Assembly (NCBI GenBank): GCA_032718475.1
Contig: JAUCBJ010006915.1
Coordinates: 112,088 to 176,087 of the forward strand
Source of the DNA: Nemertoderma westbladi
Lineage: Eukaryota; Animalia; Xenacoelomorpha
Direction: 5' to 3'
Length of the DNA stretch: 64,000 nucleotides
The notes under the pieces are model-generated. The model searched no databases. It saw only the letters and a program-made list of their open reading frames with translations, and was not told the DNA's origin. Shown here piece by piece: positions 11,814 to 58,320 of this stretch. Position 1 is the first letter of the stretch. The number at the start of each line of letters is the position of its first letter. A program made the position numbers and the translations under genes.

Positions 11814-11821
11814 AGGGAGAA

Positions 11822-19680: not shown

Positions 19681-22600
19681 AGGTAGAATTATATGTCAGA
19701 TGCCGTCCGATCCGATCCGATCCGATCCGATCCGATCCGATCCGATCCGATCCGATCCGATGCAATTCAGCAATTATTCTAGCTACAACTGTCAGACTGC
19801 AGACTGTACAAGCCTAGCTGCTTAGGTCTACTTCTGTTTTGCCTATCACAGTTTCTCTAACTCAATATCCCTTTAATTGAATATCAGAATATCTATCTTT
19901 GCCGTGTTTTATTTAATTAATATAGGGCATAATAAATTAGTAGAGGAGCTAGATCTGAAAACTGATTATACCGCGGTTATACGGCGCCTACACTTTTCTT
20001 TACTGCAATGAAAGCCGGTGTATAGCTGTATAGTACCCGGCTGCGTGGGATTCCAGGACGAAGGTCAGAAAAAAAGCACTACTGTATGGCCACTTTTCGA
20101 CCGTCGACACAAAGCCGCTGCGAAGTTATTATGGGACAGGATGGTGATGCTCGGTAGACAGTGGCGGTTCTAGGGGGGGGGGGCAGGGGGGCATCTGCCC
20201 CTCCCCAGGTATCTTGGGGGGGGGGGCTTGCCCCCTCCCTAGCGAAAGGTAATGTGGTAAATCCGAACCAGTGGGTACCGACTTGCTCGAAAACAGACCT
20301 CTCTGGGAAAAGACTTCTATTTTTTTTTCAAAATTTAGTTACTACCCGGAGATATCCATTATAAAACACTCTGATATTTTTGTAAAATTCTGGAACTTTG
20401 GGAATTCGGGAAAAAATCGGGAAATTTTTTTCAAAGTATAATAATTTCTTTTAATGTTTCCTTTTGTTTATTTTTTTTTTATTGGGGGCTGCGACGAACT
20501 GTAGCTTGATTCCGAAACGTGCAGTGGCGTGCAGAAGGGCGGGGGGGGGGGGACGGCCCCGGGCGCCACCTTCCAAGGGGCGCCAAAATTTGAGCAGTAG
20601 TGGCATCATAGCCAGCTGATAGTATAATGGTGGTTCCAAGTTTAGCTTATTGATGCTAGACATTTAGCCCATCCAACATACAAACATAGTAGTTTGGTTC
20701 TGTATTGGTTGCATAGCCTTTCAGCACTGCCCACATTGCACATGTGAAGGTGTCACAGGTGAGAAGGTAGATGTCTCCTGCGATTGGTCCATGGTATGGT
20801 CACTGGAAATATCTCCATTGGTAAGTTCAGTGGCTTGGTTTTTTAAGGCATGTGCAAGTAAATTTAAGCAGTAAATTTCTTAATATAATATAATTTTGCA
20901 ATTAAAAAGGGGTCCTACTAATTACCCCAACCTACCACAAACTACCACAATCTACCCCAATAATTCGATACAGGCATCTAATTACCACAATATTATTTTA
21001 CAATGGCATCTAATTACCACAATGTACAGAACTCAAGTGTCTATTTACCACAAGACTAACTGCGCATCTAATTACCACAATATACAGAACGCAAGTGTCT
21101 AATTACCACAATACTATACAGCGTCTAATTACCACAATATACAGAACGCGAGTGTCTAATTACCACAACACTATACTGCGTCTAATTACCACAATATACA
21201 GAATGCAAATATCTATTTACCACAACACTACACTGCATCTAATTACCACAATATACAGAACTCAAGTGTCTATTTACCACACGACTATACTGCGTCTAAT
21301 TACCACAAGACTATACTGCGTCTAATTACCACAATCTATTTACGAACAAGACTACACTGCACACTGCATCTAATTACCACAATATTATTTTACAATGGCA
21401 TCTAATTACCACAATATACAGAACGCAAGTGTCTATTTACCACAAGACTATACTGCGTCTAATTGCCACAACACTATACTGCGTCTAATTGCCACAACAC
21501 TATACTGCGTCTAATTACCACAACACTACCTTATACTGCGTCTAATTACCACAATCTATTTACCACAAGACTACACTGCATCTAATTACCACAATATTAT
21601 TTTACAATGGCATCTAATTACCACAATATACAGAATGCAAGTGTCTAATTACCACAACACTATACTGCGTCTAATTACCACAGGACTATACTGTGTCTAA
21701 TTACCACAATCTATTTACGAACAAGACTACACTGCACACTGCATCTAATGACCACAATATTATTTTACAATGGCATCTAATTACCACAATATACAGAACG
21801 CAAGTGTCTATTTACCACAAGACTATACTGCGTCTAATTACCACAACACTATACTGCGTCTAATTACCACAACACTATATTGCGTCTAATTACCACAATC
21901 TATTTACGAACAAGACTACACTGCACACTGCATCTAATTACCACAATATTATTTTACAATGGCATCTAATTACCACAATATACAGAACGCAAGTGTCTAT
22001 TTACCACAAGACTATACTGCGTCTAATTGCCACAACACTATACTGCGTCTAATTGCCACAACACTATACTGCGTCTAATTACCACAACACTACCTTATAC
22101 TGCGTCTAATTACCACAATCTATTTACCACAAGACTACACTGCATCTAATTACCACAATATTATTTTACAATGGCATCTAATTACCACAATATACAGAAC
22201 TCAAGTGTCTATTTACCACATGACTATACTGCGTCTAATTACCACAAGACTATACTGCGTCTAATTACCACAATCTATTTACGAACAAGACTACACTGCA
22301 CACTGCATCTAATTACCACAATATTATTTTACAATGGCATCTAATTACCACAATATACAGAACGCAAGTGTCTATTTACCACAAGACTATACTGCGTCTA
22401 ATTGCCACAACACTATACTGCGTCTAATTGCCACAACACTATACTGCGTCTAATTACCACAACACTACCTTATACTGCGTCTAATTACCACAATCTATTT
22501 ACCACAAGACTACACTGCATCTAATTACCACAATATTATTTTACAATGGCATCTAATTACCACAATATACAGAACTCAAGTGTCTATTTACCACACGACT

Positions 22601-23059
22601 ATACTGCGTCTAATTACCACAAGACTATACTGCGTCTAATTACCACAATCTATTTACGAACAAGACTACACTGCACACTGCATCTAATGACCACAATATT
22701 ATTTTACAATGGCATCTAATTACCACAATATACAGAACGCAAGTGTCTATTTACCACAAGACTATACTGCGTCTAATTACCACAACACTATACTGCGTCT
22801 AATTACCACAACACTATACTGCGTCTAATTACCACAATCTATTTACGAACAAGACTACACTGCACACTGCATCTAATTACCTGTACCATATAGGGCTCGC
22901 CTAAGGTCACTCATTTGTAAATCGCTTACTGAGTGTAACAATAGTTATTATCGATAGTGACCTTTAGTATATTGTTGATGGACTCGCAGTTATTGTTAAT
23001 TACTGTATAATATAATATTGCTTAATTAACCTTTTTGTTACAATTTTTTTTGGTACACA

Positions 23060-26890: not shown

Positions 26891-29803
26891 TTGTATATCA
26901 TATACGTGTAAAATAGCGTGGTTGATAGATGAGCCTCTGCATTTATACGGGCTTGGCACCGTTTTTTGTGTTCTTCATGAATGTAAAACACAAAAAGCTG
27001 CATTACTGTAATTATTATTTCATATAATCGTATAATTGTTTCCCCGTTTAACATATGTTGTGGCGATTGTGTCCCCCTTTGTGGCAACTATAACCTCCGT
27101 AGTGGCGATTGTGTCCCCCTTTGTGGCAACTATAACCTCCGTAGTGGCGATTGTTTCTTCCGTTGGGGCAACTATAACATCTGTTGTGGCGATTGTTTCC
27201 AGAGGGCGGCAACTTTAACTACAACACCCAACAATAAATACTTTTTATTTCAATAACTAAGTATACAGTACTTTAAATAGGGGGGTCTTTCGATACAAAC
27301 GATATTTACAGAAATAACAACTGATTACTTCCAAAACTAATACCTTAACAATGTACTACAAATGGACATAATGATGTCCATTTGTATATCATATACGTGT
27401 AAAATAGCGTGGTTGATAGATGAGCCTCTGCATTTATACGGGCTTGGCACCGTTTTTTGTGTTCTTCATGAATGTAAAACACAAAAAGCTGCATTACTGT
27501 AATTATTTTTCGTATAATCGTATAATTGTTTCCCCGTTGTGGCAACTATAACATCTGTTGATATAACTCCGTATTCCACCGTTTGGGTTCGTTTGGGTAC
27601 CGTTTGGGTTTTTAGTCCTACCCGTGATTAGACACTTGAGTTCTGTATATTGTGGTAATTAGACGTTAGTGAAGTTTTGCGGTAATTAGACACTGAATAT
27701 TAATAACTACCGTACTGTATATTGTGGTAATTAGACACTCTTGCATTCTGTATATTGTGGTAATTAGATGCAGTGTGGTCTTGTGGTAAATAGACACTGC
27801 GTTCTGTATATTGTGGTAATTAGACGCAGTATAGTGTTGTGGTAATTAGAGACTTGCGTTCTGTATATTGTGGTAATTAGATGCCATTGTAAAATAATAT
27901 TGTGGTAATTAGATGCAGTGTAGTCTTGTGGTAATTAGACGCAGTATAGTCTTGTGGTAATTAGACACTTGCGTTCCGTATATTGTGGTAATTAGATGCC
28001 ATTGTAAAATAATATTGTGGTAATTAGATGCAGTGTAGTCTTGTGGTAATTAGACGCAGTCTAGTCTTGTGGTAATTAGACACTTGCGTTCTGTATATTG
28101 TGGTAATTAGATGCCATTGTAAAATAATATTGTGGTAATTAGATGCAGTGTGCAGTGTAGTCTTGTTCGTAAATAGATTGTGGTAATTAGACGCAGTATA
28201 GTCTTGTGGTAATTAGACGCAGTATAGTCTTGTGGTAATTAGACACTTGCGTTCCGTATATTGTGGTAATTAGATGCCATTGTAAAATAATATTGTGGTA
28301 ATTAGATGCAGTGTAGTCTTGTGGTAATTAGACGCAGTATAGTCTTGTGGTAATTAGACACTTGCGTTCTGTATATTGTGGTAATTAGATGCCATTGTAA
28401 AATAATATTGTGGTAATTAGATGCAGTGTGCAGTGTAGTCTTGTTCGTAAATAGATTGTGGTAATTAGACGCAGTATACCGTATAGTCTTGTGGTAATTA
28501 GACACTTGCGTTCTGTATATTGTGGTAATTAGATGCCATTGTAAAATAATATTGTGGTAATTAGATGCAGTGTGCAGTGTAGTCTTGTTCGTAAATAGAT
28601 TGTGGTAATTAGACGCAGTATACCTGTATAGTCTTGTGGTAATTAGACACTTGCGTTCTGTATATTGTGGTAATTAGATGCCATTGTAAAATAATATTGT
28701 GGTAATTAGATGCAGTGTGCAGTGTAGTCTTGTTCGTAAATAGATTGTGGTAATTAGACGCAGTATACCTGTATAGTCTTGTGGTAATTAGACACTTGCG
28801 TTCTGTATATTGTGGTAATTAGATGCCATTGTAAAATAATATTGTGGTAATTAGATGCAGTGTGCAGTGTAGTCTTGTGGTAAATAGACACTTGAGTTCT
28901 GTACATTGTGGTAATTAGACACTTGAGTTCTGTATATTGTGGTAATTAGATGCCATTGTAAAATAACATTGTGGTAATTAGATGCCTGTATCGAATTGTT
29001 GGGGTAGATTGTGGTAGATTGTGGTAGTTTGTGGTAGGTTGGGGTAATTAGTAGGACCGATTAAAAAGTCATTTAATTACTTCAATATTTTCTACTACCA
29101 CACATGTTATGAAAGTTTGTGCGGCTAAAATACTAAAGTATATTTATTGCCTCTTAAATAATTAAATATAAGATAATTATTTTATTGCGCAGAACACCAT
29201 CTCCATACCGAAACCTAACTAACCAAAACAATAAACGATATCATTACAAATTAATGGAAAGGAGTGCCACACACGTCGCGTCTCTCCTCCACATCTTTGG
29301 AACGATACGGGTTACCACCAGCTGACGGCTGCGACCCTTCCATTAACTAAATAATTAGATAAGTAGACATAGACGGGTTTAGACAAAGTTGTTGTTAGGA
29401 ATGTTTTTTTTGAACGATTTAAAGCTGGCATTTATAAACGTGTCCAGATTGGGCTCTACTGCTTGCGTGGAGCCATTTACAAGTCCGAAAAATTGGCCTC
29501 AGCAAATTAAATATTTTGCCCCCCCCCCCCCCCCCCCCCCCAAGCATAATCCTACAACCGCCCCTGTCGGTAGAGGACAATCTAGGACATGAGACACATA
29601 GTAAAGTTAATTGTTAAAGATGTCCCAACATTATTTTAGCTTTGTATTGTATCTATTTGTGTGCAATTAAAAGGTCATGGTACAATCAAATCAATCCCAT
29701 CAAATCAAATCCATTCGTATTTTGAGTTTTTTCGAATTTGTTTAACAAATACAGGTTTAAATTTCAACTTTAAATTGCAAAAAACATATTAATAGCGGTA
29801 CCC

Positions 29804-41480: not shown

Positions 41481-42787
41481 TTAAGCGAATGAAGACTTAG
41501 TAAAGGTTGTGTTTAGTCTTTTATTCTCATCAGCAACAACCAACAATGCCTGTAACATTTCCTCATCTGTAGTTATGCCACTTTTAATAAACTTTGATAC
41601 AGCTCCAACACCTCGTTCAGCTGGATCATTAACTACAGTCACCTTGTCTATAATCATTTTAGCATGTTTATATTCTGAGCTAGATGGCCAGTCAGGTTTA
41701 GTGAAAAATGATGTGTCGATCTTCAACTTCTTAAATAGAAACAAACTCCTCTTCGAAACAAACTCAGGCAGCTTTTTGTCTACTGCTGACCCTGCGATAC
41801 CTGCACTGACTCTCACAGATCTCACTGATGGTTGAGCATCATCTATATCAAGAGCATCCAACATTGCCTTCTTCTCTTCAATAGTTACTTTATCTGAGAA
41901 TAGGGAAAGGCACACTAGTTCACTACTCAAATACCATAAGTGACGATTTAAGGCTTTCATGGCAGTTGTGGCAACTGTTGTATTTACCTTCTCATATTCC
42001 TTCAAATCTCTTAGCATTAACAGATCGTTAATTGGAGCATCAGCAGCTGACATACACTGGAGCCAGTACTTTGCATACACGAATACAACAAACATCACGA
42101 AATTTCTAAGAGAGTCTTCCTCCTTCGCTGTGATTAGCTTGCTCTCTCTTAGCTGGTTTCGAAATAAGTACATTAGCATGCTGTAATTGGCCTTTGCCAT
42201 CCAGCGGGCATCACTCACAGCACCTGGTCTTGTAAATTGTACCTGATTGCTGCTCCTTGGAACCTCAGCACCTAGTACAGTCAAAGCTAATTCCAGAAGT
42301 ACTTTGTAATCATTTCTTGGTTGTTTCACAAGAAGCATTGGTTCTAACAAAGTCACTGCTTCCGAAATAAGTGTTTTATCCACAGTTACATTATCATCAT
42401 GAGTTAGGGTTGAGTAGTCATTCAGAATCAAGTGGTCCCAGTTTGATTGGAATCGTTTAAACAGCAGTATTTCAGGCCCTGAGCTCGCTGGAAATTTACA
42501 GGCATTCTGGAAAACATCTCCAAGAACAACTTCCATGATATGATGACGACATGCCAGGTTAAGAAGTTCTCTATTTAGCTTTTGTTCTAGGATAACACAT
42601 GCTCCTCTACCTGCTCCTGTGTTAGAAGTTGTTGTATCGAAACACATCCCTTCAACCTTATCAGCAATATCTCTAGCATTGAGTGCTATCAGTGTAGCTT
42701 CAGCCTGTGCTAAACCAGTTCCACTGCTAACCTTTGGTGCAGATATCATTTCTGAAAAAGTCTCAGGTACATTATCAGCATTCCAAA
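41481..42787 (-). pseudogene. 5'-truncated hAT-superfamily transposase (hATm-like; subfamily tentative)
   Basis: Motifs SGTG..QA, GMCFDTTTSNTG..GAC, LACRHHIME, PGA...ARWMAK, HLWYL, VVNDPAERGV; first catalytic Asp region absent; the ORF's first about 24 codons come from adjacent inserted DNA. Confidence 0.8.
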
Positions 42788-42838
42788 GTAAAGTACGGGA
42801 CATTCGTACACAATTTTGAACTTTGATTGCCTGTACAA

Positions 42839-45674
42839 TAGGGGTGGTTGATTTCTCCATTTATCATATAAATTTGAACATTGGTGCGACTTTGCCTTCT
42901 AAACATTTCCTCAAAGTTTGACATTGATTTGAGCACAGCTTCCCATTACCCCAATGCCCATTTTTTCCTATAATAATACCAGCATATCTCTAGCCATACC
43001 GGTGTTGGGGTACGGTACTGTTGTATGTACAATGCAGAATATGACACTGCCTGACCCTACTGTAGTACAGCAATATCTGAATATGCATTGCAACTGCAAA
43101 CTGCTACCCACAGTGCAGCAGTTGGCACCTTTTTTTGAATCTTAGTAAGTTCGTTTTAGCTATATAGGCCTACCCTGCTCCGTAGCGTAGGCCTACCGTA
43201 TTTTAATTGCAATGGTGATATAATTATATGGTTGATTGACATTTTATTGGATTTTAACCTTATTTATCATTAGGCCTATGCTGTTAATGTTATCATATGG
43301 CAACACGAAATCAGACTGGACGCCTCTTCGGCTTTGCTGCGAAACTGCCTGGCCACCAACTACCTACAAATGGCGATATTCTACGTTACTGCGAATTAGT
43401 AAAAATGCAACATCGGGCGGAGCCAAATGGTAGCCATGAAGAACTGTCGAATCGAGAAATGCAAAAAATTGTAGCAAGTGAAGTTATTGCAATATACGAT
43501 TTTGCCACAGTTGCAGTGCTTTCAACTGAGCGTTGTCATCAAAAGATCATCGAGGAGTGGCGCAAAGCACAACGATTGAACTGTGATAAAGCCAAAAAGT
43601 GCTTTCCTACAAAACTGGAATCCGCGAAAATTAATTGGGGCAAGCTCTTTGATGTTGTCGATTACAAGAATTTAAACCCTCTAGAGAAAGATTTCGTGGA
43701 TGATCAAGGAAGCGATAGAAAAATGTTCATAGAAAAATTAGATAAACAAGAGTTCCAGAAACGTAAAAGGTATCTCAAACGAAAGCAGCAGGAGCTTCAG
43801 CGTGAAAGAAAGGAGAAAACGAGAAAGCTAGCCCAAAAAGCTGTCTGCGAATTACCTAGCTCAAGTGAAACTGACTCTTCATCTGATTCATCCGATAGTG
43901 ATCCGAATTTCAGGGAGAGTGTCTCAACAAGCAGTGCCTACAATACCATCCCAATCCCTTGTGTTGCAAGGGAAGCTGATCGAAAGATGGTTTCTGACGA
44001 AACAGTTGCTGCTATTGCCACTGCTACTTTGCAGGATGTATTAGGAGAAGACTTCTCCAGAGACATCGTTATTGACCCACTGAAAGTGAGACGTAGCCGG
44101 GTCAAGAGGCGTACTGGATTGAAACCAACCCATCATGACATAAATAATTTGATATCGCTCTATTTTGATGGGAGAAAGGATGAATCATATGTCTTCGATG
44201 ACTACCACCATAGGAGAAAAATAAAAGAAGACCATTACGTATTGATGACACAACCTGGTGACATTTACATTTCTCATGTCACAACACCAAGTGGTCGTTC
44301 AATTGACATTTTAAAATCTATAATTGACGAGAATATCAACATGGATGGAATTCGAGTAATAGGTTGTGACGGGACAGCAGTGAACACTGGGAATCGTAAT
44401 GGAGTAATTGCTAGAATTGAAGATCATATCCAGCATGAAGTTCAGTGGAATATATGTATGCTGCACATTAACGAGTTACCGTTGCGGCATCTATTTGAAT
44501 TATATGGAAAGACATCTGGTCCAGAAACATTCAGTGGTGAAATTGGTGATATTCTTGGGTCAAACCTTACAACCTTGGAGATCGCATTGTTTGATAAAAT
44601 TGAAACTCCCCATTTGCCAACATTGGATAATTCAAAGGACCTAAGCACAGACCAGATGTATCTTTTGGAAATCTGTCATGCGATCAGTTCTGGGGAGTGC
44701 CCTGAAACACTCTTACACCGAGATCCTGGGAAATGTAGTCATTCACGATGGCTCACAGGAGCAAATCGAATGTGCCGCTACTATGTTAGTCAAACACATC
44801 CAACAGAAGCTGTTAAGACATTGACTCGATTCATTGTAACAGTATATGGGCCTGTATGGTTTGCCACTAAGATGGCTACAGATATCAGTGATGCTCCACC
44901 AGTACTTTTCCTTATGATAAAACTCAGTCGTGAACTTCAACCAGCAGAAGTGCAGTCTGTCATCGACAAATCGATAAAGCAAAATTGCTATGCAGCTCAC
45001 CCCGAAAACTTGCTATATGCCATGTTTCACGACAATAGACCTGCAATTCGCGAGCTAGCTGTTAGGCGAATTCTGAAGGCACGAAAGGTTTCATCTACAG
45101 AAATACGAAAATTCCATCGCCCTGCTAATCAACTTAACCTTAATGCTACAGATTATATTCATATGATCGACTGGATGCACATTGACGTTACTGAACCACC
45201 ATTATTAGCATCTAAGAGTGAGGATCAACTTTGGGATGCTATAAAGTCAGTCCCAGTAAAGTCGTCGTACACACCACAGACTCAAGCTGTTGAAAGAATG
45301 ATTCGTGTAGTAGCTGAGGTCAGCCTCAAAACTGTCGGAAAGGAGAAAAGGGACTCTATGATTCATTCTATCTTAGATGCAAGGAAGCAGCGCCCTATGT
45401 TTGAATCAAAGAAAGATTATGTTGTTTAGTTTAACATACAGGTTTGGTTTGAACTCATTAAATTTCAATTGTGTTCAGTTTTCACTGTAGCCTACCGGTT
45501 GAATATAATTTACCGTGCAGTAGAAAATTGTATTTTTCCATAACACCTGGGGTAAGTGGTTAGGGTCACACTATCACATTGAAATTTTGACACTTTATTT
45601 AGTATGGCAAGCCTCAACTAAATACCACTTTATGGAACAATCCCACTATTTTGTGTAAAAATCGACTCTCCCTA
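42839..45674 (+). mobile_element. Full-length, apparently autonomous hAT-superfamily transposon (2836 bp)
   Basis: Imperfect TIR TAGGGGTGGTTGATTTCT / AAAAATCGACTCTCCCTA (13/18 match); exact 8-bp TSD CTGTACAA (42831-42838, 45675-45682); single intact transposase ORF. Confidence 0.85.
43297..45429 (+). CDS. DDE transposase, hAT superfamily (hATx-like; subfamily tentative)
   Basis: 710-aa intact ORF: YFDGRKD, GCDGTAVNTG, ICMLH (CxxH), HSRWLT, TQAVER; enclosed by TIR and 8-bp TSD. Confidence 0.88.
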   Translation: MATRNQTGRLFGFAAKLPGHQLPTNGDILRYCELVKMQHRAEPNGSHEELSNREMQKIVASEVIAIYDFATVAVLSTERCHQKIIEEWRKAQRLNCDKAKKCFPTKLESAKINWGKLFDVVDYKNLNPLEKDFVDDQGSDRKMFIEKLDKQEFQKRKRYLKRKQQELQRERKEKTRKLAQKAVCELPSSSETDSSSDSSDSDPNFRESVSTSSAYNTIPIPCVAREADRKMVSDETVAAIATATLQDVLGEDFSRDIVIDPLKVRRSRVKRRTGLKPTHHDINNLISLYFDGRKDESYVFDDYHHRRKIKEDHYVLMTQPGDIYISHVTTPSGRSIDILKSIIDENINMDGIRVIGCDGTAVNTGNRNGVIARIEDHIQHEVQWNICMLHINELPLRHLFELYGKTSGPETFSGEIGDILGSNLTTLEIALFDKIETPHLPTLDNSKDLSTDQMYLLEICHAISSGECPETLLHRDPGKCSHSRWLTGANRMCRYYVSQTHPTEAVKTLTRFIVTVYGPVWFATKMATDISDAPPVLFLMIKLSRELQPAEVQSVIDKSIKQNCYAAHPENLLYAMFHDNRPAIRELAVRRILKARKVSSTEIRKFHRPANQLNLNATDYIHMIDWMHIDVTEPPLLASKSEDQLWDAIKSVPVKSSYTPQTQAVERMIRVVAEVSLKTVGKEKRDSMIHSILDARKQRPMFESKKDYVV

Positions 45675-45682
45675 CTGTACAA

Positions 45683-47290
45683 TGTTATCCACAGCACATA
45701 TGTGCACAAAATTGTGCTTGGATTAAACTTTCGAATATCAGCTTTGATTTTGCGAAGCTTATGGCGGGACTTAGTCACTTTTGAGAAAACGCCAGCTTGT
45801 CCAATTAAGGTAAAGTACGGATTCGTACGAAATGGTTTTTTTTATTTTATGATTTCAATTCTAAAATTTAGCGAATTGTGCGCAGGTACGGTGTTGAGTT
45901 GATGTTTAGGATAAAGCTGTAATATTAAGCTTAAATAAAAATATAAATATAAGACGAATTGCTGCATTGCTATTTTTTTAACAGTGTGGTTTGTGTGGTA
46001 AAGTATGGGACATTGCTAAGTAAAGTACGGGACCTGTACGAATTTTATGGTCAAAATGGTCTCTTACACTTAATCTAACAGTAATTTCTAGATAATTAGT
46101 GATAATAAAGTGCAACTAAGTATTTCCAACCAAGATATGGATGCAAAATGTGGGGCGACCAACAAATTGACCCGAAGTCTTAGCATATGGGTGCCATTGA
46201 GGAGTTGTATGTCATCTGTCTAATTTTTGATTGCTAATACTGTATAAACTCGGTCATTTTTAGATGAAATTAAATCAAACCTGGTACGTATGAAGTCTGT
46301 CAAAAGTTTGGAAAGAATCTGAAGTTTAAGGAATCAAAGGTCACATATCAGACAGTCTGTCTGTTGGTACCGATAGTTTCAAAATTTTGATAAAAACCGA
46401 AATAAGTCTGCCAATCATTGATGAAATATTACTAAACTTGGTACACATGCAGTCTGTAAAAAGTTTAGAAATTCTTTCCATTTTTCTGAAAATGTACCGG
46501 TATCAATTACTGTACTTACCGATCTTCTTATCTGCTAAAAAAACTAAATTTTTTGAAATTTGTTGTAAAGTATGGGACTTTACATGCATAAACTCAAAGA
46601 TTATTTAACTGAGGAATGATTCTTAGTTCAAATACATACTTATATGCTTCCCACTACTATCACCCTAAAGCATTAATAACACTCCTGCCCTCAAGGTTTC
46701 ATATATTACATTAATACAGTGCACTAATGTAATCGCCATTATAATGGTAAAGTATGTGACAATTTTCAATTGGCCGTTATGATGTTTCTGAGGGAGTAGA
46801 TTATGAAACTACAGGTAATTGTTTCTTAAGATGACGCAACACAAACGTGCTTTGCATTCCACTGGGTGATTGGGCTTAGTTAGACAACTTCTCTGTGTAT
46901 AAATTAAAAATTTCACTATTTTTTGGTAAAGTATGGGACTTTACATGCATAAACCCAAGGATTTCTTGACTGAGGAATGATTCTCAGTTCAAATATAGAC
47001 TCCTATTCTTACGGCCGACTATGACCTTAGAATATTATAACACTCATGGCTTCACATATTACATTAATACAGTGCACTAATATAATCGCCATTTTGATGG
47101 TAAAGTATGGGACAATTTTCAATTGGCCGCCATGATATTTCTGAGGGAGTGAAGATGAAACTAATTGTTTTATACGATGACGCAACACAAACGTGCTTTG
47201 CATTCCACTGGGTGATTAGGCTGAGTTACATCTCTGTGAATAAACTAAAAATTTCACTATTTTAGGTAAAGTATGGGACATCACAAGATT
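45683..47290. repeat. Region of dispersed 14-bp direct repeats GTAAAGTAYGGGAC with an about 355-bp duplication; likely transposon subterminal region
   Basis: Motif or close variant at 45810, 45998, 46020, 46565, 46747, 46926, 47100, 47266 and also 42788 on the other side of the hAT insertion; 46560-46920 resembles 46921-47280. Confidence 0.6.
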
Positions 47291-47766
47291 AACTTTATCG
47301 ATTTCATTACAGAGGAATGAAACACTGGTGAAATTAAATAAAACCAAAAAAATTCGAAAAGGGGTTTGTTTTTGATTTGGTACATGCTCAGAAATGTTAA
47401 TTTATTGGTCATAGGAAGTGCCTACAGGAAACGAAACTTTTGCACACTTTTATTCACATTTTGTGCAGAGCAGGTGCATAATTTGTAATTCGACTATTTT
47501 TGATAAACCACCTGTGTTGATACAATTTTTAGCACTGAATTCATGAAGTAGGATAAATTTTGACCTAAAATAAGTATAAATTCAAAGCTACATCTCAATT
47601 TTAGAAATTAGTGGGGAGGTTGACCTTTTCATGGAATGAGCCTAATATAGTTGCACCAAATACCTTATATATAAACTGATTAGGTTTGAGTACAATTTTA
47701 CCATTCAATTGATTTTTTAATTCTTTCAAATTAAGTCCATAAATAATCTGCTTACAACTTATATTT

Positions 47767-50700
47767 TTATTTACTATTTGATAATTCATCATCAACACCA
47801 TCGTCTTTTGGTTCTTCATAAATTGGTATATTTGATATTTTTATAGGTTTTTTGAGGTTTGTTTTATAGTGCCCCCAAGGAAGCGATTGATTTTTATTAA
47901 GCCAATAAAGTTTATCATCAAAGCTGCTGAGCGCAAATTTATTTTGCTTTAAGGTATAAATACGATGTAATTTAGATTGAAATCTGTGTATGTTTTTTTT
48001 TATTTCTTCATTTGAGTTATATGCTTTTAAATATTCTTCATGTGTAATATTCGTTTCCACAACAGCTCTTGTAATACCTTTTGCTCTACGAATATTTTTA
48101 TTATTCCATTCCAAAATTGAATATAATTTTGGTCTTAAAAATACTGCTTGTTTAATTTCACGTGAGGCTAGTTCGTCTTTACAGTAATAGAGCCTAGATT
48201 TATTTTTATCACTGTAGAGCGGGTGATCCTTGGGGTAATTGGATGTATCTAAAATATTATTTTTAATTAAGGCTTTTAAGAAATTATTCTGTGATGTGTT
48301 ATAGTAACAGCCTATCAAAGAGTCGGTGTCTGACGCAGCAATTTCAATACGACAGTTTAATTCTTTCTTAATAGGTAGCAATTTATCGTAATACAGCTGA
48401 TACATATCCAATTTAGCCAAGTCCAACACAGCGCTACCAATAAATATAGGCTTATCGAGAGTTACAGAGTCTTTCACTAATAAATGTCCCGATAGTGTAT
48501 TATTGTATATTATAAATTGTTCATGATTAATACGATTTACCAATTGATCGCATTTATCGTTGCTATTTGCGATACGAAAGTTACACCGATCTCTTATTTT
48601 TTCTATTGATTTGCCAAACAGTGAATTATTGAGCAATTTCGCAACAGCTGTTTCAATATAACTTTTTGCCAGTCGCCTTTGATTAATATTAAAATCGATG
48701 TAATTTTTAAATACAAATTCTTGTTGAAAAGAATATAATTTATGTAGTTTAGTAACAATTAATCCATGTTTTATATAAAATTTTAACAGTTTCAAATGTA
48801 AATGATAAAACTCTTTATCAAATTGTGTCAGCATGAGTTTTGGTATAGGCATTCTATATTTACGGGAGGTACCTCTTTGTATCGACAAGTTATTAAATTG
48901 TTCCCGCATATAAGGTGAAAGCATTGATTCATTTATACTTAAATGCTCAGGGGCTAACGGTAATTGTAATGTTTGATCGTGAATAGCCTTGGGATAATTT
49001 AAATCACATATTAAAAAATATCCAGTAGATCCCTCAATGTCTAAATCTCCCAAGTACTCGATTAGTTTTTCTGGTATTGCATTCTCTAAATGTTTAATAC
49101 TTACTTCTTTGAATTGTGAGGTGGGTAGTTTTTTACTTAAATTCCCAGAATATAAAGAGTTGAAATCAATATTAAAAATATGGCATTCTTCCTTAGTAGA
49201 ATCATATGTACTTGTACCTGGTATATTTGATTCTATATAATGCTTTCGACAAAATGAAACACCACCCCTAATTGATTTTTCAAAATCTCTATATGTCTGA
49301 TAATCCTTTATTAATTCTATTTTACATTTATTATATTTTAGCGCGCAATCATATGTAAATGATACGATACTACAGTAAAAAACCACTTCTAAATCGTAAT
49401 TTTGTTTACAAACATTCCTAAAATTCTCAAATATATCAGCAAGCAAACAAACATCGAGTTTTAAATAGGCTAAAAGATAATCTTTGAGATTCACGCAGTC
49501 GAATTCAACCCATGATATTCCAGCAAACCTATAATCTTCAATTGTGCATGTTTTTTGACTTAAGTTACTAAAAAAATTATTTATAGACGGCAAACCAGTA
49601 TCATTAAATTTATTAATATCTGTCAAGTACTCGTATGGAAATACTCCTTTCCGTTTAATTGTTGAGTTATTCAAGTTTGGATAAAAATATTTCATTTCTT
49701 GTAGAGTAATAGGTAAAATTGAGCTTATATCATGACTGGCTACATCCTTTGTTGAACACTCAACTAAATTACTTAAAGAAAAGCTTAAAAATTGATATGT
49801 GTCTAAGAAACGTAACTCAATTTTCTTAGACGTGTTTTTAATTGGGATAAAGGCACTCAGTGAAATATATCGTTCTGTATTTCTCGGTATAACCTTTATA
49901 TCCCAATCAGTGTATTTCTTATCTCTAAATCCGCTTTGTAATATACAATGTATATCATAATTGTTGGAATTGTGGCCGCAAAGTACATACAGGTATCGTT
50001 TCACTGATAAACTTCGGTTACAACTATTACAGGCTGCCGCAATATATTTACCTGTAATATGTGAATGATGTCTGTTTTTCCCTACTTTATTATTTAAAGT
50101 AACATTACAATAAAAACAAAATTTTGCTTGTTCAAAATTTACAAAATCAATATTAGTAAATAACATAGTTTTATGAGTGTATATGTCTGACCAACAACAT
50201 AATTCAGTTATATCAGTATATAATGAATCTAAGAAATCTTGAATACAATTATTATTATTTGTCTTTACAAATGTTTTCAAATGACATTTTGGAGGGTTAA
50301 TTAATTCAGTATTGGGAACAATTAAATAACTCACAGCACACGGTATATGCTCCTGTATAATTTGATTATTAACTGACGGTTGTAAGATACATTCTATATC
50401 AAAGTAGGTGACAAACAATGGGGATAAGGTTCTATCTAAATTTGTAAAACTAATGTGTGTTCTTTTTTTAGGTAGTGTCTCTCGCTGACTTCTTCCTTGG
50501 TAGCAAGCGAGACGGTGTTGATGAAGAACTTCCGCACGAAAAAAATGAGCCAAACATCTTTCGCAATATTTCCTATTTTGGATATGAAGAGCTCTCATAT
50601 TCAGCAATCGATTCAAGTTAGTTATGGAAACATAATGATTCTGTTTAGGTACATTGTTATTTTTTACTACAAGTAATATATTTAATAACTGTTTATCTGG

Positions 50701-51822
50701 TGTAATTTTACTAAACGGAGCTTGTCTTAATATAGATACGGGGGTGCGTTTGTTGTCGTTATTCCAACATAGTAAATTAATTATATATTTTGAATTTTGT
50801 TTTTCAAAAAGTTTAATAGCTAGCTTCCACTCTGTTGGATAATCTTTGTTCCCATTGTCAAAAATGAAATGACTCATATAATTTTTGTACTGCGAAGTAC
50901 GATCTTTGTGATCTTTCACTTTGCTACTAAATTTTGCGGATATAATTGCCCATTTAAAACAGTTATTATCAGCTGATTGTATATTTATAACACATCGTTT
51001 AACTGATAAAGCCTTAGGTAATTCCATATATCCATGCCCCTTATATAGTAACGAGCTACACTTAGATTCAGCTAATTTAATTTCAACCCTTAATAAAGAT
51101 TTAATACGCCACCCCGAACCACGTGTGTTAAAGATGGCTATTTTTTGTAATATATTTTCCAAAACATACTCATACCATGCGTCAAAACTTTGCGGTGAAT
51201 CTACAGTATTAATAGCACCACCGGAAGAATTAAAATAAAAGGTTTCCAATTGTTCACCTTGTGAAAAATGTGATCTGTACATTAATACATTTAGACCTAA
51301 CCACAGTCTAAGAACATTCATATCTTTCAATCTGTCTAATATTAACTGAAGAATATTACCTCGAATTTGCGTTAATGCTGTTTCTACATCGGGATAATCT
51401 CTAGAAGTTGGGAGGTCGTGGACATAAATTTCAAGACGATTATCGTGAGCTTCTTGTTCCCACGTAAAAATTGTTGCGCATGTACCAAGAGCCACCCTTA
51501 AGTTTTTTCTGGATATTATATTTTTATGTTGCGGACATTTACGCTTTCTTGTGTAGTAACATTTCAAGTGACAGTCGTGTCGTAGATAATCGTCATATGT
51601 ATACTCTTTATTACAGGTAGAACAAGTCAATTGATAGGCACGGAACTGCATTTCTTTACAACCAGTAGTCGTTTCATGTCGTTTACAAATTTCGCTCCAT
51701 GAAGTCACGACATGACACTTTAAACAAGAATAACTTTCAAAATGTGACCGTAGATGGCGTAAGTAATTATGTCTAGTTACATTCATATGACAGAATGAAC
51801 AACATATTGTTATTTTATCCAT
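47767..51822 (-). CDS. Protein-primed family B DNA polymerase, Polinton/Maverick type, with N-terminal zinc fingers and an EndoVII-like zinc insertion
   Basis: 1351-aa intact intronless ORF; GSGW and CFKWAI N-terminal motifs; Exo I YFDIE, Exo II HNSNNYD, Exo III YLKLD; RKGVFPYEY; IRGG; Pol A DFNSLY, Pol B KLLNNSLFGK, Pol C SDTDS; RPKLYS, AKGI, FDDK; CFYC...RHHSHITGKYIAAACNSCN insertion. Confidence 0.95.
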   Translation of the reverse strand: MDKITICCSFCHMNVTRHNYLRHLRSHFESYSCLKCHVVTSWSEICKRHETTTGCKEMQFRAYQLTCSTCNKEYTYDDYLRHDCHLKCYYTRKRKCPQHKNIISRKNLRVALGTCATIFTWEQEAHDNRLEIYVHDLPTSRDYPDVETALTQIRGNILQLILDRLKDMNVLRLWLGLNVLMYRSHFSQGEQLETFYFNSSGGAINTVDSPQSFDAWYEYVLENILQKIAIFNTRGSGWRIKSLLRVEIKLAESKCSSLLYKGHGYMELPKALSVKRCVINIQSADNNCFKWAIISAKFSSKVKDHKDRTSQYKNYMSHFIFDNGNKDYPTEWKLAIKLFEKQNSKYIINLLCWNNDNKRTPVSILRQAPFSKITPDKQLLNILLVVKNNNVPKQNHYVSITNLNRLLNMRALHIQNRKYCERCLAHFFRAEVLHQHRLACYQGRSQRETLPKKRTHISFTNLDRTLSPLFVTYFDIECILQPSVNNQIIQEHIPCAVSYLIVPNTELINPPKCHLKTFVKTNNNNCIQDFLDSLYTDITELCCWSDIYTHKTMLFTNIDFVNFEQAKFCFYCNVTLNNKVGKNRHHSHITGKYIAAACNSCNRSLSVKRYLYVLCGHNSNNYDIHCILQSGFRDKKYTDWDIKVIPRNTERYISLSAFIPIKNTSKKIELRFLDTYQFLSFSLSNLVECSTKDVASHDISSILPITLQEMKYFYPNLNNSTIKRKGVFPYEYLTDINKFNDTGLPSINNFFSNLSQKTCTIEDYRFAGISWVEFDCVNLKDYLLAYLKLDVCLLADIFENFRNVCKQNYDLEVVFYCSIVSFTYDCALKYNKCKIELIKDYQTYRDFEKSIRGGVSFCRKHYIESNIPGTSTYDSTKEECHIFNIDFNSLYSGNLSKKLPTSQFKEVSIKHLENAIPEKLIEYLGDLDIEGSTGYFLICDLNYPKAIHDQTLQLPLAPEHLSINESMLSPYMREQFNNLSIQRGTSRKYRMPIPKLMLTQFDKEFYHLHLKLLKFYIKHGLIVTKLHKLYSFQQEFVFKNYIDFNINQRRLAKSYIETAVAKLLNNSLFGKSIEKIRDRCNFRIANSNDKCDQLVNRINHEQFIIYNNTLSGHLLVKDSVTLDKPIFIGSAVLDLAKLDMYQLYYDKLLPIKKELNCRIEIAASDTDSLIGCYYNTSQNNFLKALIKNNILDTSNYPKDHPLYSDKNKSRLYYCKDELASREIKQAVFLRPKLYSILEWNNKNIRRAKGITRAVVETNITHEEYLKAYNSNEEIKKNIHRFQSKLHRIYTLKQNKFALSSFDDKLYWLNKNQSLPWGHYKTNLKKPIKISNIPIYEEPKDDGVDDELSNSK

Positions 51823-52011
51823 GTTGAAGTTTGTTTAGATAAATAATAATAATAATAATAATAAAATATCTCCAAAGATTAAAATAAAATGAAATGAAAT
51901 GTTATTGACTACATCTAAACATTTATATGCTAGCGAGGGAAATAATTTTAAACCAATCACCAATCGCTTATGACTATTGGAAACCGCAAAGAGTTTAACT
52001 TATGATTAGGC

Positions 52012-53076
52012 TTACATGTTAGGATAATAATCTGGTTTCCATGGAGAATTAGTAACAGGCTCTACTAGAACTGGGTTACTGACGATTTTCTGTTTCTTTG
52101 CAGGTGATGCGTTGGTAAATTTACTCGATGATCTTGGCTTCCGAGGTAATATTTCAGGAAAGACCTGTTGCGGTTGAGAGCAACTCTCTTCAACATCTGG
52201 ATTAGGTGATGGGATCTCTACGAACGCTTTAGGTTTATCCAAAAGGACAAAGCCGTCAACGTGGGCTTCAGTAAGAGAAACGCCATCCAGCGATTCTTTG
52301 AGAAAACTAATATGAGCTTTATCATTCATGTAATGCAACTCGATAGAATTTCCGCCGGCACCTACTTCAGTAGAATTATCGGTGTTGGTGATAATAATTT
52401 TTTTATTATTGGTTTTAATCATTTTGAGACGGTCTGATAATTGAATGATATTTTTATCAAAAAGATGCTTGTCTGTTTCAGCGACTTGGTTGTCCCACTC
52501 TCGCAGCAAAACAGTTAGTTCCTGTTTTGACAAATTGAAACCTGTATAATAGTTAAAACCAACACTATCAGTGTATCTGAGGCTGATTTTCCATAAGCCA
52601 ACATAGTTGGTTCCTTTAAAAGCTGTTACAAATCCAATAAAGTCTGGATTTGATAATTCAATGTAGAATTGATCGCTAATAATCTCTAGCGGTGGAGAGA
52701 GAAATTGCAATAATTTCCCTCTGTATTGAATTAGAACTTCAGTAAAAGCTTTGTTGAGAACTTTACATTTGCCTTGTTTCTGAACGTAAACATCACCCGA
52801 TGTGGGGTTGATGGAAATATTCAAATTTCCCCGCGCAAAACGAGGAGTTGGATATATCCTACCTGGTATAATTGCTGGTCTGGATTGATGTTGGTTGTTG
52901 TTGGTTGTTTCTAGAATGTCTAACAAATAGCGGGTATCTTGATGGGAAAAACAAATCGATTCGTTGTCATCCTGAGATTCCACAATAAAATACTTGCTGT
53001 GAACGACGGTACAAGTATATTTATTGTAAGTAAATTTCCAGCTATTTGTTGCTCCGGTTTTTTGCGTTAAGGCCAT
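52012..53076 (-). CDS. PC4-like (putative ssDNA-binding) protein co-oriented with pPolB
   Basis: 354-aa ATG ORF; FVTAFKGTNYVGLWK...GFNLSKQELTVL resembles the PC4/Sub1 pattern (V..FKG...IDIR...GISL..EQW..L); C-terminal NLS-like SPAKKQK. The ORF is solid; the domain call is by eye. Confidence 0.6.
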   Translation of the reverse strand: MALTQKTGATNSWKFTYNKYTCTVVHSKYFIVESQDDNESICFSHQDTRYLLDILETTNNNQHQSRPAIIPGRIYPTPRFARGNLNISINPTSGDVYVQKQGKCKVLNKAFTEVLIQYRGKLLQFLSPPLEIISDQFYIELSNPDFIGFVTAFKGTNYVGLWKISLRYTDSVGFNYYTGFNLSKQELTVLLREWDNQVAETDKHLFDKNIIQLSDRLKMIKTNNKKIIITNTDNSTEVGAGGNSIELHYMNDKAHISFLKESLDGVSLTEAHVDGFVLLDKPKAFVEIPSPNPDVEESCSQPQQVFPEILPRKPRSSSKFTNASPAKKQKIVSNPVLVEPVTNSPWKPDYYPNM

Positions 53077-53136
53077 AATAATAATAATAATAAATACGAA
53101 AAATATTACAAGTGATAAATTTTAAACCGTATCGCT

Positions 53137-53638
53137 GTAATAAATTGACACCATAGTTCTCACTCTAAAATTGTGTTTGGATGTAAGGAAGAATTTATAG
53201 TATCGATGAATATATTAATAAAAGACGACACCGCGAAGATTATTTAAGAGCATATTACGATAACGAAGAAATTTCAAAAGAAACGCCTCAATTTCAGAGT
53301 CAATTACACAAAGTGTACACAGTAGCATGATATAAGTTTTGAAATTGAGGCGTTTCTTTTGAAATTTCTTGGTTATCCGTATATGCTCTTAAATAATCTT
53401 TGAGGTGTCGTCGTTTGATTAATATATTCATCGATACTAAAAATTCTCCCGCACATCCAAACGAGATTTCCTTTGAGTTACATAATTACGATTAGAAACC
53501 CAATGCGGGAATCAGTAACATTTATTCGAGTGTATGATTTTTCCGATCAACAAGTAAGATAATGAAGAAATTATTAAGGAAATAACATAATTTTCAGAGT
53601 GAGAACAAAAAAAATTAGATATGGTATCAATATATTAC
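53137..53638. repeat. Long imperfect inverted repeat made of pPolB-like coding fragments
   Basis: Inner arms about 53175-53297 and 53340-53462 with a loop of about 40 nt; outer arms about 53137-53172 and 53588-53638; plus frame 53187-53330 translates to a pPolB C-terminus-like peptide. Confidence 0.88.
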
Positions 53639-54719
53639 CATGAAGATTACTACAAGTGATGAATTTTATTAAAAGCATTCAGTTATATATGTATAAATTT
53701 GCGATGTGGCATAGTCAACGAAGAAGAGATGGTACGTGTCATAATCATCAACGAATAAGAAAAGAGATGAGCTGCAACGTGGATGAATGGTTGGTTGCCT
53801 GAATAGGAAATATGTGAAAGAATATGAATCATAGGGTTGTGTGTAATAATCAATAATTATTATAATAAAAACGCACAGTATATAATGTTAGTGGTGGTGG
53901 TAGCCTTTCAATATGGCACAGATGCTGCGGGATTGGTTAGGTTGAGTAACTATGGAAATATTCGTATACGTGTAGCTAGAACGTGGCGGAATTTCAACAC
54001 GTATCATAATAGCGTTGGGGTAGGCAGGCCGCTCGGTTGGTTGGATTGGCGACAGCCGTCGAGGAGTAGCCGTGGTGAGTTGGCAATCGATTCGATATAA
54101 TAGCGTAGTGGGGGCTAGCCATGCGATGAGAAGTTAGGTTACGCGAAGATGAATATGCGATGGTTGGTTGATGCAACGACGCGAATCAATACTCGCGGGT
54201 GGTAACAGTTGTCGAGTAAGGCAGGCATCGCGAGGTTAGGCTACGTGTAGGTGATAAGCAACGATTGGTTGAAGGCAACAATACTGTTGGTGACAGATGG
54301 TCATTAAACACCACGATTTAGCACCGGAATTTGGCATTTTTAATAGCCCTCTGAGATGCAGCCCGTAGCCCAGGCTAGGGAGGAGTTGCGTGAGAACTAT
54401 GCTTCTCCTACTACTAGCGTATACAATTGTCCAACCTTTCTCTGATGCGAGGGTTATAGCAGACACATTTGGCTCCGGACCAGTCCCCCTTCTCCCTGGC
54501 TTGATGAGAGTTTAGCATATAGCCACGATACTTCGGTACCGCTGGTAGTTGCGAACTCGTGTCTCGCCACAAAGGGATCGATCAGGGACTGCGTTGCGGT
54601 GTGTGGCTGTCTGATTCGGGAGGTGATGTCCGCCTACCCCCGTTGCATTGATATATTCAAACTCGCACCTCGTTATGTTAAAACACCCTCTTCCGATAAA
54701 CGAGGTTCTCGCGGACAGC

Positions 54720-55690
54720 ATTCGGAGATGATGGATACAATGACGGCTGATTTCTCTGGTGAATCTACCGAACTCACTCAGAGTATGTCGCCCCATAAGG
54801 ACGGGAGGAGGAAGAGCGGACAGAGCTTGAACGATTGAACGACGAACGCGAATTAGCTTCTTTGGTCCAACCCGCGGTCCAGACTTTAATAGATGGGTTC
54901 CAAAGTAAAGCACGTATTCACACATGTGGGTCGTAATGCGTTTTCGGTGTCGTTTACAGTCAAACCCAACCGATACCTTTTGACACCGACATCTTCAACC
55001 CCAATTTAGTTGTGGATGCTCCGATGTTGTAAACTCACGTCGCAGAGCCCATATGCGACAATACTGATGAATGGATTATCGCTCCTCCCGGTCGAGCTGA
55101 TTAAATAAAGACTTTAATCTGGGATAATTACCTCGAAAGACGTCCTCCCCATTCCCCGTGCTTTGGGACTTAGAACCACCCGGATTTCGTCTTTATCGGT
55201 CAACATTGTGTAATGAAACCCCAGCATCCCGCCTGCAGCGTGGATTTTCTATCTCTGGTTAATCCCCTCGATGATACCGAAATCGAGCCCGTGCAGAAGC
55301 ATTTCGACTATACAATCAAGTCAAATGAATACCTTTCGACTCGACCCATAGGGACGACGAAACATCCCTTCTGAAATATATCCGATTGTGGGATCACTTC
55401 GCAAATTTACAACGGATTGCGCAATCATGTTATGTAAAGTTATTGTGCCATTCTGTTCCCACATCAATCGTGGTTAGCGAACTTCAACCGGGAACATCTA
55501 CTGGTAGACGACCAACCGTACGAACTGTCGCACCCCCTTCTGACTCTTTGGAACTTCATCCTTCTGCTGCTAAGGGGCTACAAGTGCAAGGTTCTCCGCC
55601 TCCGGTACCTGGTAATGGCTCCCCACCACCGAAACGTCGCAAGCAACCCCCAAAGAGGAAAAGGAGCCGGAAACAAACGTTAAATTATCT
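54720..55690 (+). pseudogene. Decayed ORF of unrecognised family (paralogue of 62810-64000)
   Basis: Long frame with scattered stops (DERELASLVQPAVQTLIDGFQ...CVFGVV...PPHS...), continuing after a frameshift to PSDSLELHPS and a basic tail PPKRRKQPPKRKRSRK. Confidence 0.45.
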
Positions 55691-57127
55691 GGTTACTTTT
55701 TATTATGGCTATTCTACTTTATATGACTTATATTCATACTTTATATAATACGTAAAATAAGTAAGTGGTGTCCCCAATAATTCATTTAGCTTATTTGTTC
55801 ACGAGCTGAGACATTTTATATGTATTATATATACTCTTTAGCACTACAGTTTGCTTATTTAGAAGTGATAGATATTCACTAATCTACTCGATTCAATTTT
55901 GTTCACGAGTTGAGACATTTTGTATATGCTGGTTACGTGTGTTCTATATACTTTGAGTTTGATATTGTTAATTGAACTATTTACTTACTTGACCTTCTCT
56001 TATGTACGATTTGAACTCCTACTTTCGTTTTTACCACCCTGATGGCTAAATGAATGAAAGCGGTGTTGCTGCACCTGCGAACTTAGCCTTTTAGATTACA
56101 TATTTTACTAATTTTAAGCTCAAAACACCATTTTTCATTGATAAAGTTGGTTACGATATAATATCGACTGTTTCAGTTAAGCAATGCTTTACTGCTGAGG
56201 GTTTTAACGCCATCTAGTGCCATTATACGCATATTCTACCTCCCATTATTGGCTGTATCATTCTATTACGGTTAATTTAATATATATGAGCTTGGTTGGT
56301 TGGATGCTGGCTCACTGTATACATGTTACGCTGCAGTGGAATTACCCCTCCCATGCAGGGCTTTAATCAGCTAGTCAGGTTTTAATGACTGGGAAATATT
56401 TCATGTCCTGGTTTAATGTCTAAGTCTAATTGTTAATAATTGAATTATATTTACATATGTTGTATCTTATATTCTGCTGTTAAATTCAATTTGCTGTCAT
56501 TGTTTGCTTAATATAACGCCGATATTACGGAATCAAGAAAGTTTTACACGCGCCACAACAGGTGGGTCACTATAATTAAGTATTAGTGATAATCTGGACA
56601 ATTGCATCAGATTTGTGTGTTGTCATACCTCAGACTTTCTAAATAATTAATATATGGCGATATTTCAGACCATTATTGTAAGCAAAGCTCTTATCATTAA
56701 TTATATCACGATTGAGAGTTGTCACAAATTAAATACTGTAGCGATATCAATATAATTAGACCAAAGACAAGTTACAATACGTTTCCTTTTAAGGGAAACG
56801 CAGTTGCCAGACTTGAGTCCTTACATAATTAATTAGTCAGTCATTTGCTTGTTATACTGTGTTGCCACACCCTCCCGGTATCGTATCTCAGTTAAATACA
56901 ATATATAATCAAATACCGTACCGAACTAAATAAAATATAGAGCAAATCAATACATAAAGGGAAAAAGGGGTAGAATAAACAGATACATTGAGCGGCCCTT
57001 CGTTGAAGGTATGCTAGCGCACTCCGTTCTTTGTATCAGACTAGACGGTTAAAGCTTATCTGCATGTATTTACAGCATAATCTGTACAAGGTCACAATAT
57101 GAAATTGAGATTGAAAGAACATATTCT

Positions 57128-58320
57128 TTGTCAAATGCGCTAACAGGGGTTATACGCGCCATTCACTTTGAGTTAGTTCCTAGTTTACATGTCAGTAGTT
57201 TCATTCAAGCATTTCGACACTTCATTGGTAGACGAGGCATTCCATTAGTAATTTTTAGTGACAATGCCTCAACATTTAAATGTTCATCGTCTGAACTTCG
57301 CATTTACAATAAGTTCCTTAACCACGATTTGGTTAAACGTGAGTTTGGTGACTTAAGTGTCACTTGGCTGTTTAACATTGCCAGATATCCATAAGCTTAT
57401 GGCTTTATTGACAGATGTGTAGGTCTCATCAAATCCAACCTCAGCAAAGTGATGGGTAGAGCCACTCTGCAACACGACGAAATGCAAACACTGTTAATAT
57501 CTTGCGAGGCTGCTGTTAACAGTCGCCCATTGACTTTCGTATCATCTAACAATGATGAAAACTACAATCTACTTACTCCTAGTCACTTTCTCGTGGGCCA
57601 TAGACTATGTGCTATTCCAACATCATCAGCACGTGCAGATAATTTAGAGTTGTCCAGAACAAACCTTATCAATCATTTACGTTACCAAGAGAAAGCAGCC
57701 AACTTATTGTGGGATAATTTGAAAAATGATAGACATCGCCATCAGGAACGTAAATCGTCATCCTTTGTGAGTCCTATCGTAGGGGAAATTTCCTTATTGC
57801 ACGATCAGAAACTACCTAGATGTCTCTGGAAGTTATGTCGCATTAATAAGTTAATTACAAGTAGAGATGGGGAGGTTCGCGCAGTTCAAGTATCTGTTGC
57901 AAATCGTGGACGACAAGCAACAATTCTTACAAGATCCGTTCAACATATTATATCATTAGAGATTCAATCCGATGAGATTGACCCCATTCTCATAAAAGAT
58001 GCTTGCAAACGGGATTCAAAATTAAAAAAAAGGTAAGTTGTAAAAGTGACAAAATAAGTGACATAGTTGACTCTTCCAATGACAAACTTGACACAAAAGT
58101 ATACAACACAGACGTACTAGCCACACCTCCTTCAGTCGCTAGTACTCATACTGTACCACGAGTCTTACAGCACACTGACACATTATCCTATCACAATGAT
58201 GATAGCAACAGCAGTCAAAATAAACCATCTAGATTACCGCGTGCTGCTAAGTCACATATTGTGCATGGTCATTACAAAATGGGAAAATAAATTCCCGTTT
58301 TGTTCGGTTGTGGAGGATTT
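57128..58320 (+). pseudogene. BEL/Pao LTR retrotransposon integrase 3' relic
   Basis: RAIHFELV..SFIQAFRHFIGRRGIP..SDNASTF, AVNSRPLT, LLTPSHFL, PRCLWKL, SRDGEVR..RSVQHI; interrupted by stop/frameshift; purine tract TGGAGGA then TGTTAG at about 58320 may start a 3' LTR. Confidence 0.88.

Follow-up and report, generated by a model that had tools for sequence, protein, structure and literature searches.

In Nemertoderma westbladi, an element that is likely a Maverick/Polinton carries upstream of its genes an imperfect hairpin whose core is a 106-nt piece of the protein-primed family B polymerase (pPolB) gene of a sister family from the same genome. If transcribed, the hairpin would likely give small RNAs silencing that sister family. 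We privilege, tentatively, the hypothesis that the element bears a hairpin RNA directed against sister Mavericks. The structure lies in the window, the whole stretch of 64,000 nucleotides analysed here, to which all positions refer; its features are collected in Table 1.

Table 1. Coordinates of the element, its resident genes and the components of the hairpin locus.
Feature	Position	Strand	Remarks
Maverick/Polinton-like element, left-truncated	47643..54415	-	contig depth step, loose ends, ACTACT
Protein-primed family B polymerase (pPolB), 1351 aa	47767..51822	-	101 homologues
Resident segment homologous to captured block	47935..48040	-	67/105 nt identical
354-aa ORF, first gene inside element end	52012..53076	-	open reading frame
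Outer left arm	53128..53177	.	pairs with 53584-53642; duplex -40.7 kcal/mol
Left-arm block A'	53168..53233	.	inverted partner of 53405-53469; outside donor block
Captured sister-family pPolB piece, 106 nt	53234..53339	+	63 nt of stem and the 43-nt loop
Right arm	53340..53469	.	captured stem in inverted form up to about 53405, followed by block A
Second, more decayed copy of same polymerase segment	53555..53635	+	3' part is the outer-stem right arm
Probable terminal inverted repeat	53939..54415	.	end motif; inner limit a weak hint

The element was delimited with contigs of host runs aligned to 45500-57500; the hairpin and its donor were examined in four runs (X1 to X4) from three studies, X1 and X3 being one sample. 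Contig depth goes up at 47643 and down in the bin 54322-54722, and the region from 47643 to about 54415 belongs to a repeat family that is very deep in the host. Loose contig ends are concordant at 47643, indicating that the window copy is cut there and that other copies are longer. The depth drop coincides with ACTACT at 54410-54415, found at one element end only; (AGT)2//(ACT)2-type motifs are described as marking Maverick ends (PMC8097293). A pPolB with endonuclease-VII-like homologues, the (ACT)2 motif, high depth and an animal genome are features shared with the Mavericks/Polintons described in PMC8097293 and bioRxiv 10.1101/2023.08.22.554363. Genes for integrase, ATPase, protease and capsid are absent among the ORFs of 47643-54415 in this left-truncated copy. 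The inner limit of the terminal repeat is suggested by a single X5 contig that departs from the window sequence at 53939, X5 having a depth of about 5 and being labelled as another organism, and by a depth step near 53939 that is clear in X1 and barely visible in X2.

Residues 1150-1351 of the resident pPolB have 101 homologues, many with precomputed PF03175/PF02945 assignments and the best with 44% identity; a direct Pfam scan of the window gives no pPolB match. The 354-aa ORF had been labelled PC4-like in the initial annotation. This label could not be confirmed: it receives no support from Pfam, Atlas or PDB, where the product has no match, or from its lone, unnamed homologue (27% identity); its structure model has a pLDDT of 30. 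An (ATT)n run is found just upstream of an element ORF of the minus strand at both 51842-51868 and 53075-53093, perhaps a shared promoter or leader signal.

The surrounding window is animal-type, repeat-rich DNA with a LINE and with fibrinogen-domain and zinc-finger ORFs. The LINE at 10836-14632 is apparently intact; its ORF1 is of PHD type and its ORF2 encodes an endonuclease-reverse transcriptase. The same tandem repeat is found in opposite orientation at 21235-22817 and 27899-28767, 95-99% complementary over hundreds of bases. Two open divergent ORFs, 41481-42860 (minus strand, 459 aa) and 43297-45429 (plus strand, 710 aa), have no match in Pfam; their motifs suggest that they may be hAT-related transposases. 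The repeat abutting the truncated end of the element holds a tandem duplication of about 400 nt with 81% identity (46559-47320). Beyond the other end, 54416-55900 is a GC-rich, frame-broken old copy of another repeat, with 110 differences over 830 nt from an X4 contig and a basic NLS-like run near 55640.

The inverted repeat that had been noticed 5' of the element genes stands, with refined arms at 53168-53296 and 53340-53469 around a 43-nt loop; of the 130 aligned columns, 115 match, 14 are mismatched and 1 is a gap. The segment 53090-53670 folds at -223.8 kcal/mol, with a z-score of -21.45 that none of 100 shuffles equals, and the hairpin folds roughly equally on both strands. Three of the 14 arm mismatches are G-U-compatible on a plus transcript, two on a minus transcript and nine on neither. 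No G-U or compensatory bias is found among them on either strand, and nothing indicates that pairing of an RNA from one strand has been selected. The outer arms of the initial annotation also pair (53128-53177 with 53584-53642). The hairpin sits about 950 nt inside the element end, and its 130-bp palindrome is maintained beside two open element ORFs. Rfam gives no match at gathering score in 52900-54500. Block A was considered as an exonuclease-domain fragment and rejected (167 of 1000 shuffles; 477 of 500 with the profile). An exact 12-nt inverted match between 53152-53163 and 54390-54401, just inside the element end, may be due to chance.

The resemblance of the plus frame to the C-terminus of the resident pPolB, also put forward in the initial annotation, is real. 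Its 17 identities are present, and 53234-53339 aligns to the whole resident polymerase with a score of 102, reached by none of 1000 shuffles (best 49). tblastn over the whole window pairs the hairpin plus frame with the resident C-terminus (E 2e-6), and a profile of the 101 homologues built without the resident matches the same block with 15.2 bits (0 of 500 shuffles). The block contains a stop at 53328-53330, beyond which the polymerase match extends to 53339. At the DNA level it is 64% identical to the resident gene (67 of 105 nt), and no uninterrupted match is longer than 11-12 nt.

Much closer relatives exist in the host. The initial annotation held that the donor was a diverged pPolB that had evolved as coding sequence, and contigs from the three studies bear this out, matching the captured block at 81-92% against the 64% of the resident gene at 47767-51822. 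Two 174-nt X4 contigs (records 25 and 26) cover exactly 53234-53339, with 17 and 10 differences; their ends, read by eye, continue in frame to an RAVV..NI-type motif before the block and an ALS.FDDK-type motif behind it, as in the resident polymerase. X1, X2 and X3 also have loose ends of donor type past 53339, as do X1 and X2 ahead of 53234, and further listed donor pieces have 7 differences in 79 positions, 5 in 66, 8 in 83 and 15 in 81. Since contigs matching the block carry on in frame to pPolB motifs at either end, the donor, as read from these contigs, is a sister pPolB family of the same genome. The nearest donor contigs differ from the captured block by 8-10%, and it may be that yet another subfamily was the exact donor. 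Third codon positions account for 6 of the 10 listed variant sites (P 0.077) and, for the nearest X4 contig, for 4 of the 5 differences that are listed (P 0.045), the other 5 of its 10 differences lying near contig ends, where none are listed. This mostly third-position divergence argues for little decay since capture. A protein search with the arm peptide returned one candidate and no match, and the resident C-terminus has no match among viral contigs.

The capture appears smaller in extent than had been thought. The initial annotation included the GRIYSIDEYINK block, with deletion of an AKG motif, in the same event; the donor contigs exit the left arm at 53234, leaving this block uncovered, and its likeness is at chance level against the whole polymerase (303 of 1000 shuffles) and against the profile (151 of 500), while 8 of 2000 shuffles score as high when residues 1215-1250, chosen beforehand, are the target. 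The block may be a relic of greater age, and the AKG deletion finds no support. The claim that the hairpin is mismatched to its own polymerase holds for most of its length. A duplex of the antisense arm with the resident mRNA would have -50 kcal/mol, where perfect pairing would give -176, and stem 21-mers have 3-9 mismatches to the resident gene, except for one 21-mer register per arm with at most 2.

A second copy of the same polymerase segment, at 53555-53635, is 53/78 nt identical to the captured block, a likeness reached by 0 and by 1 of 2000 shuffles in two runs and by none of 41 other pieces of the element. The partial copy proposed earlier near 53558-53603 is thus upheld at the DNA level, whereas the peptide, taken by itself, does not reach significance (123 of 2000 shuffles). 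The HEDYYK and NIT copies proposed with it are marginal, with 77 and 617 of 2000 shuffles for the peptides and 14 and 7 of 1000 for gappy DNA alignments. At the 10 listed variant sites, 53555-53635 has the sister-contig letter at 3, the arm letter at 3 and neither at 4, a mixture unlike a plain copy of the present arm. A 504-nt X4 contig connects this copy to the element end. The outer left arm, which lies within the deep, family-wide part of the locus, has no significant likeness to the polymerase when taken alone (472 of 2000 shuffles). From these alignments, the same segment of a 4-kb gene seems to have been captured twice at this site. A double capture fits selection of a target and also a homology-guided template switch onto the older copy.

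The hairpin is found in deep contigs of two studies, one of which may be the source of the window sequence. Contigs bridging its junctions by at least 31 letters are identical to the window at 53151-53275 (X2, depth 773), 53291-53450 (X2, depth 819) and 53291-53410 (X3, depth 661), and an X1 contig of depth 2238 (53381-53582; 2 differences, 1 gap) links the right arm to the flank. Other listed contigs are as shallow as depth 13 in X1 and 17 in X2. The contrast suggests tens of near-identical hairpin copies, depth not being copy number. The hairpin is apparently not unique to the window copy and seems to belong to a mobile multi-copy subfamily; among the origins put forward in the initial annotation, an element-borne hairpin is favoured over a host-selected locus or a one-off rearrangement by these deep, exact contigs. 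Most of the family has another interior, as the flanks are tens of times deeper than the inside of the hairpin: summed X1 depth is 147,000-228,000 at 53121-53162 and 53604-53666, while most bins specific to the hairpin have 2,600-6,400. No X4 contig covers the hairpin-specific parts; X4 donor contigs have a depth of about 30, at which a minority form could escape, and this lack of cover is given no weight. At the flank positions 54755, 54894, 54926, 54937 and 55043, all the aligned depth of X1, X2 and X4 shows another letter than the window, which suggests, contigs being liable to lose rare alleles, that the hairpin was not amplified together with its right-hand flank. Shorter hairpins made of block A only are seen at the joints 53200 to 53426 (X1, depth 84) and 53211 to 53426 (X2, depth 74). 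Contigs of X1 and X4 also join 52692 to 53559, with sides of 24-30 nt, possibly an internally deleted derivative from which the hairpin is gone, along with the beginning of the 354-aa gene.

Extra fragments of the own polymerase were found in none of 101 related loci, of which 36 have at least 1 kb before pol; the window was detected as a control. A screen against 258 pooled polymerases failed to recover this control and is uninformative, and a pol-like match at a hairpin of locus L028 (E 0.002), absent from that screen, was dropped. Near-perfect hairpins of 112-184 nt lie directly 5' of pPolB in L043 (1556-1672), L047 (431-614), L049 (6384-6529) and L070 (1430-1541), which are 68-82% identical and do not count as independent lineages. 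These hairpins have an (AC)3A-type motif, reported as a Maverick end (PMC8097293), at both ends, and differing interiors without pol origin. They look like palindromic element termini, since the DNA upstream of them is unrelated between loci. Among the 27 other loci with more than 1.5 kb before pol, upstream hairpins occur in L001, L011, L043 and L049, within 2.5 kb, and in L095, further away. L045 and L078 are about 99% identical to L047 except for A-to-G clusters at this Polinton-like end: relative to L047:540-735, such changes make up 9 of 9 differences in L045:1-75 and 16 of 16 in L078:35-138 (632-735), with a 5' G in 2 of 25. A-to-G clusters with few 5' G neighbours are described as an ADAR pattern (PMC5850803). 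They lend indirect support to the view that such elements transcribe the part 5' of pol into dsRNA, although pairing of the two terminal repeats could explain the clusters as well and the library type is not given.

In the hypothesis that we privilege, a template switch or recombination between two families co-replicating in one nucleus would have captured the 106-nt pPolB piece, the older polymerase copy possibly guiding this second capture. Fold-back copying would then have produced the right arm and left donor sequence continuing into the loop, and the hairpin would have spread with an active element lineage to tens of copies. Read-through from the element end would yield a hairpin dsRNA, which the host would cut into small RNAs damping the sister elements and largely sparing the element's own polymerase. 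What favours a hairpin RNA is that the captured sequence matches the rival far better than self, that the palindrome persists and that capture seems repeated; the A-to-G clusters 5' of pol in relatives from unrelated hosts fit dsRNA in vivo. Several observations weaken it. The arm mismatches have no G-U bias, the 63-bp donor stem and the 8-10% difference from the donor leave room for few perfect 21-mers, and each arm has one 21-mer with no more than 2 mismatches to the own gene. Most of this successful family does without the hairpin, the hairpin locus, which lies upstream of the element's genes, would itself be matched by the small RNAs, and none of the 101 related loci has an extra fragment of its own polymerase. 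Homology-guided switching, besides, gives repeat capture without selection. The further proposal of a dedicated hairpin site near the element end, where the polymerase stretch of rivals would be captured repeatedly and refreshed as they diverge so that host RNAi excludes them, is rather doubtful.

The same events of template switch and fold-back, occurring during protein-primed strand-displacement replication at a spot prone to rearrangement, could have left a neutral relic that hitchhiked with amplification of the element, an origin that we regard as somewhat unlikely. It accounts for the variation of the site among copies, with hairpins of block A only, the joint of 52692 to 53559 and many indels, and for a loop contiguous with the donor, as fold-back predicts. 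The unbiased arm mismatches and the minority status of the hairpin agree with it as well, and the older copy could have steered the second switch by homology. Neutrality sits less well with a long palindrome retained in near-identical deep contigs of two studies. The mostly silent divergence from the donor fits constraint on one arm, as does the left arm being nearer, where the inner stem is mismatched, to the resident sequence as outgroup, a weak sign from 3 events. If the stem-loop itself were selected in cis, as a transcription stop or insulator for terminal-repeat read-through or as a signal for replication or packaging, it would be incidental where its sequence came from. A stem is indeed present at the site in three forms (the outer stem, block A only, and A with B), and L043, L047, L049 and L070 have near-perfect hairpins 5' of pol with unrelated, non-pol interiors. 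Such a role is nevertheless unlikely: the hairpins of these relatives appear terminal while that of the window lies well inside the end, upstream hairpins are present in just 5 of the 27 other loci with more than 1.5 kb before pol, and the double use of polymerase sequence is left unexplained.

Two other silencing scenarios differ from the privileged hypothesis in their target or beneficiary. By analogy with miR-BART2 of EBV, which acts on the polymerase mRNA BALF5 (PMC6989438), microRNA-like guides might restrain pPolB family-wide, the element's own included. The one 21-mer register per arm close to the resident gene would allow it; the remaining stem, with 3-9 mismatches per 21-mer to the resident, and a captured sequence that is the sister's make self-damping quite improbable. 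Still harder to sustain is a silencing locus of the Mu killer type, a single rearranged insertion retained by the host, for which the left truncation of the window copy and the origin of Mu killer by inverted duplication of a transposase gene (PMC3440606) could be invoked. The exact hairpin is found in deep contigs, yet the five flank positions show another letter, a suggestive result that speaks against a single locus, and we judge a host-selected locus very improbable.

Known systems share parts of this design. Mu killer of maize is likewise an inverted duplication of a piece of a key gene of a mobile element, for which fold-back RNA and siRNAs were proposed; it is a single defective locus with arms of about 1.3 kb that silences its own family (PMC3440606), while the window hairpin has a 63-bp donor stem, a source in a sister family and apparently mobile copies with open genes. 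The Drosophila hpRNA loci Nmy and Tmy are hairpins of recent origin by which a family of selfish genes is silenced in an animal; they are host loci with a shown siRNA function (PMC10292708), whereas the window hairpin is borne by a selfish element and is known from sequence. It appears to have the long inverted repeat and the identifiable target homology of an hpRNA, and we do not file it as one. Closest in logic are the virus-borne mini-CRISPR arrays (PMC6858448), in which short pieces of a close relative are carried and host machinery would be borrowed for its exclusion. Those arrays consist of archaeal spacers with repeats and a leader, while the window hairpin has no repeats, leader or Cas and would take an RNAi route. 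In EBV, miR-BART2 is a small RNA of a DNA virus against a family B polymerase mRNA, as proposed here; it targets self, whereas the window hairpin is ectopic and closer to a relative than to self (PMC6989438). Among the literature accessible to our search, judged mostly from titles as listed, no report of a polymerase-derived hairpin in Mavericks was found, and the word 'hairpin' is absent from the main text of PMC8097293, PMC8502044, PMC11131425, PMC9683012 and bioRxiv 10.1101/2023.08.22.554363.

Hairpins known to silence mobile DNA are either loci of the host or defective element copies shutting down their own family. Even if neutral, the hairpin is a record of sequence exchange between Maverick families about 35% diverged at pPolB, which implies that both were copied in the same nuclei. 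Its arm-specific and junction alleles would make any small RNAs attributable. If the hypothesis of a hairpin RNA aimed at sister Mavericks is true, integrated DNA viruses of animals would compete through the small-RNA machinery of their host, and this competition could help to explain the diversification and replacement of Maverick families.
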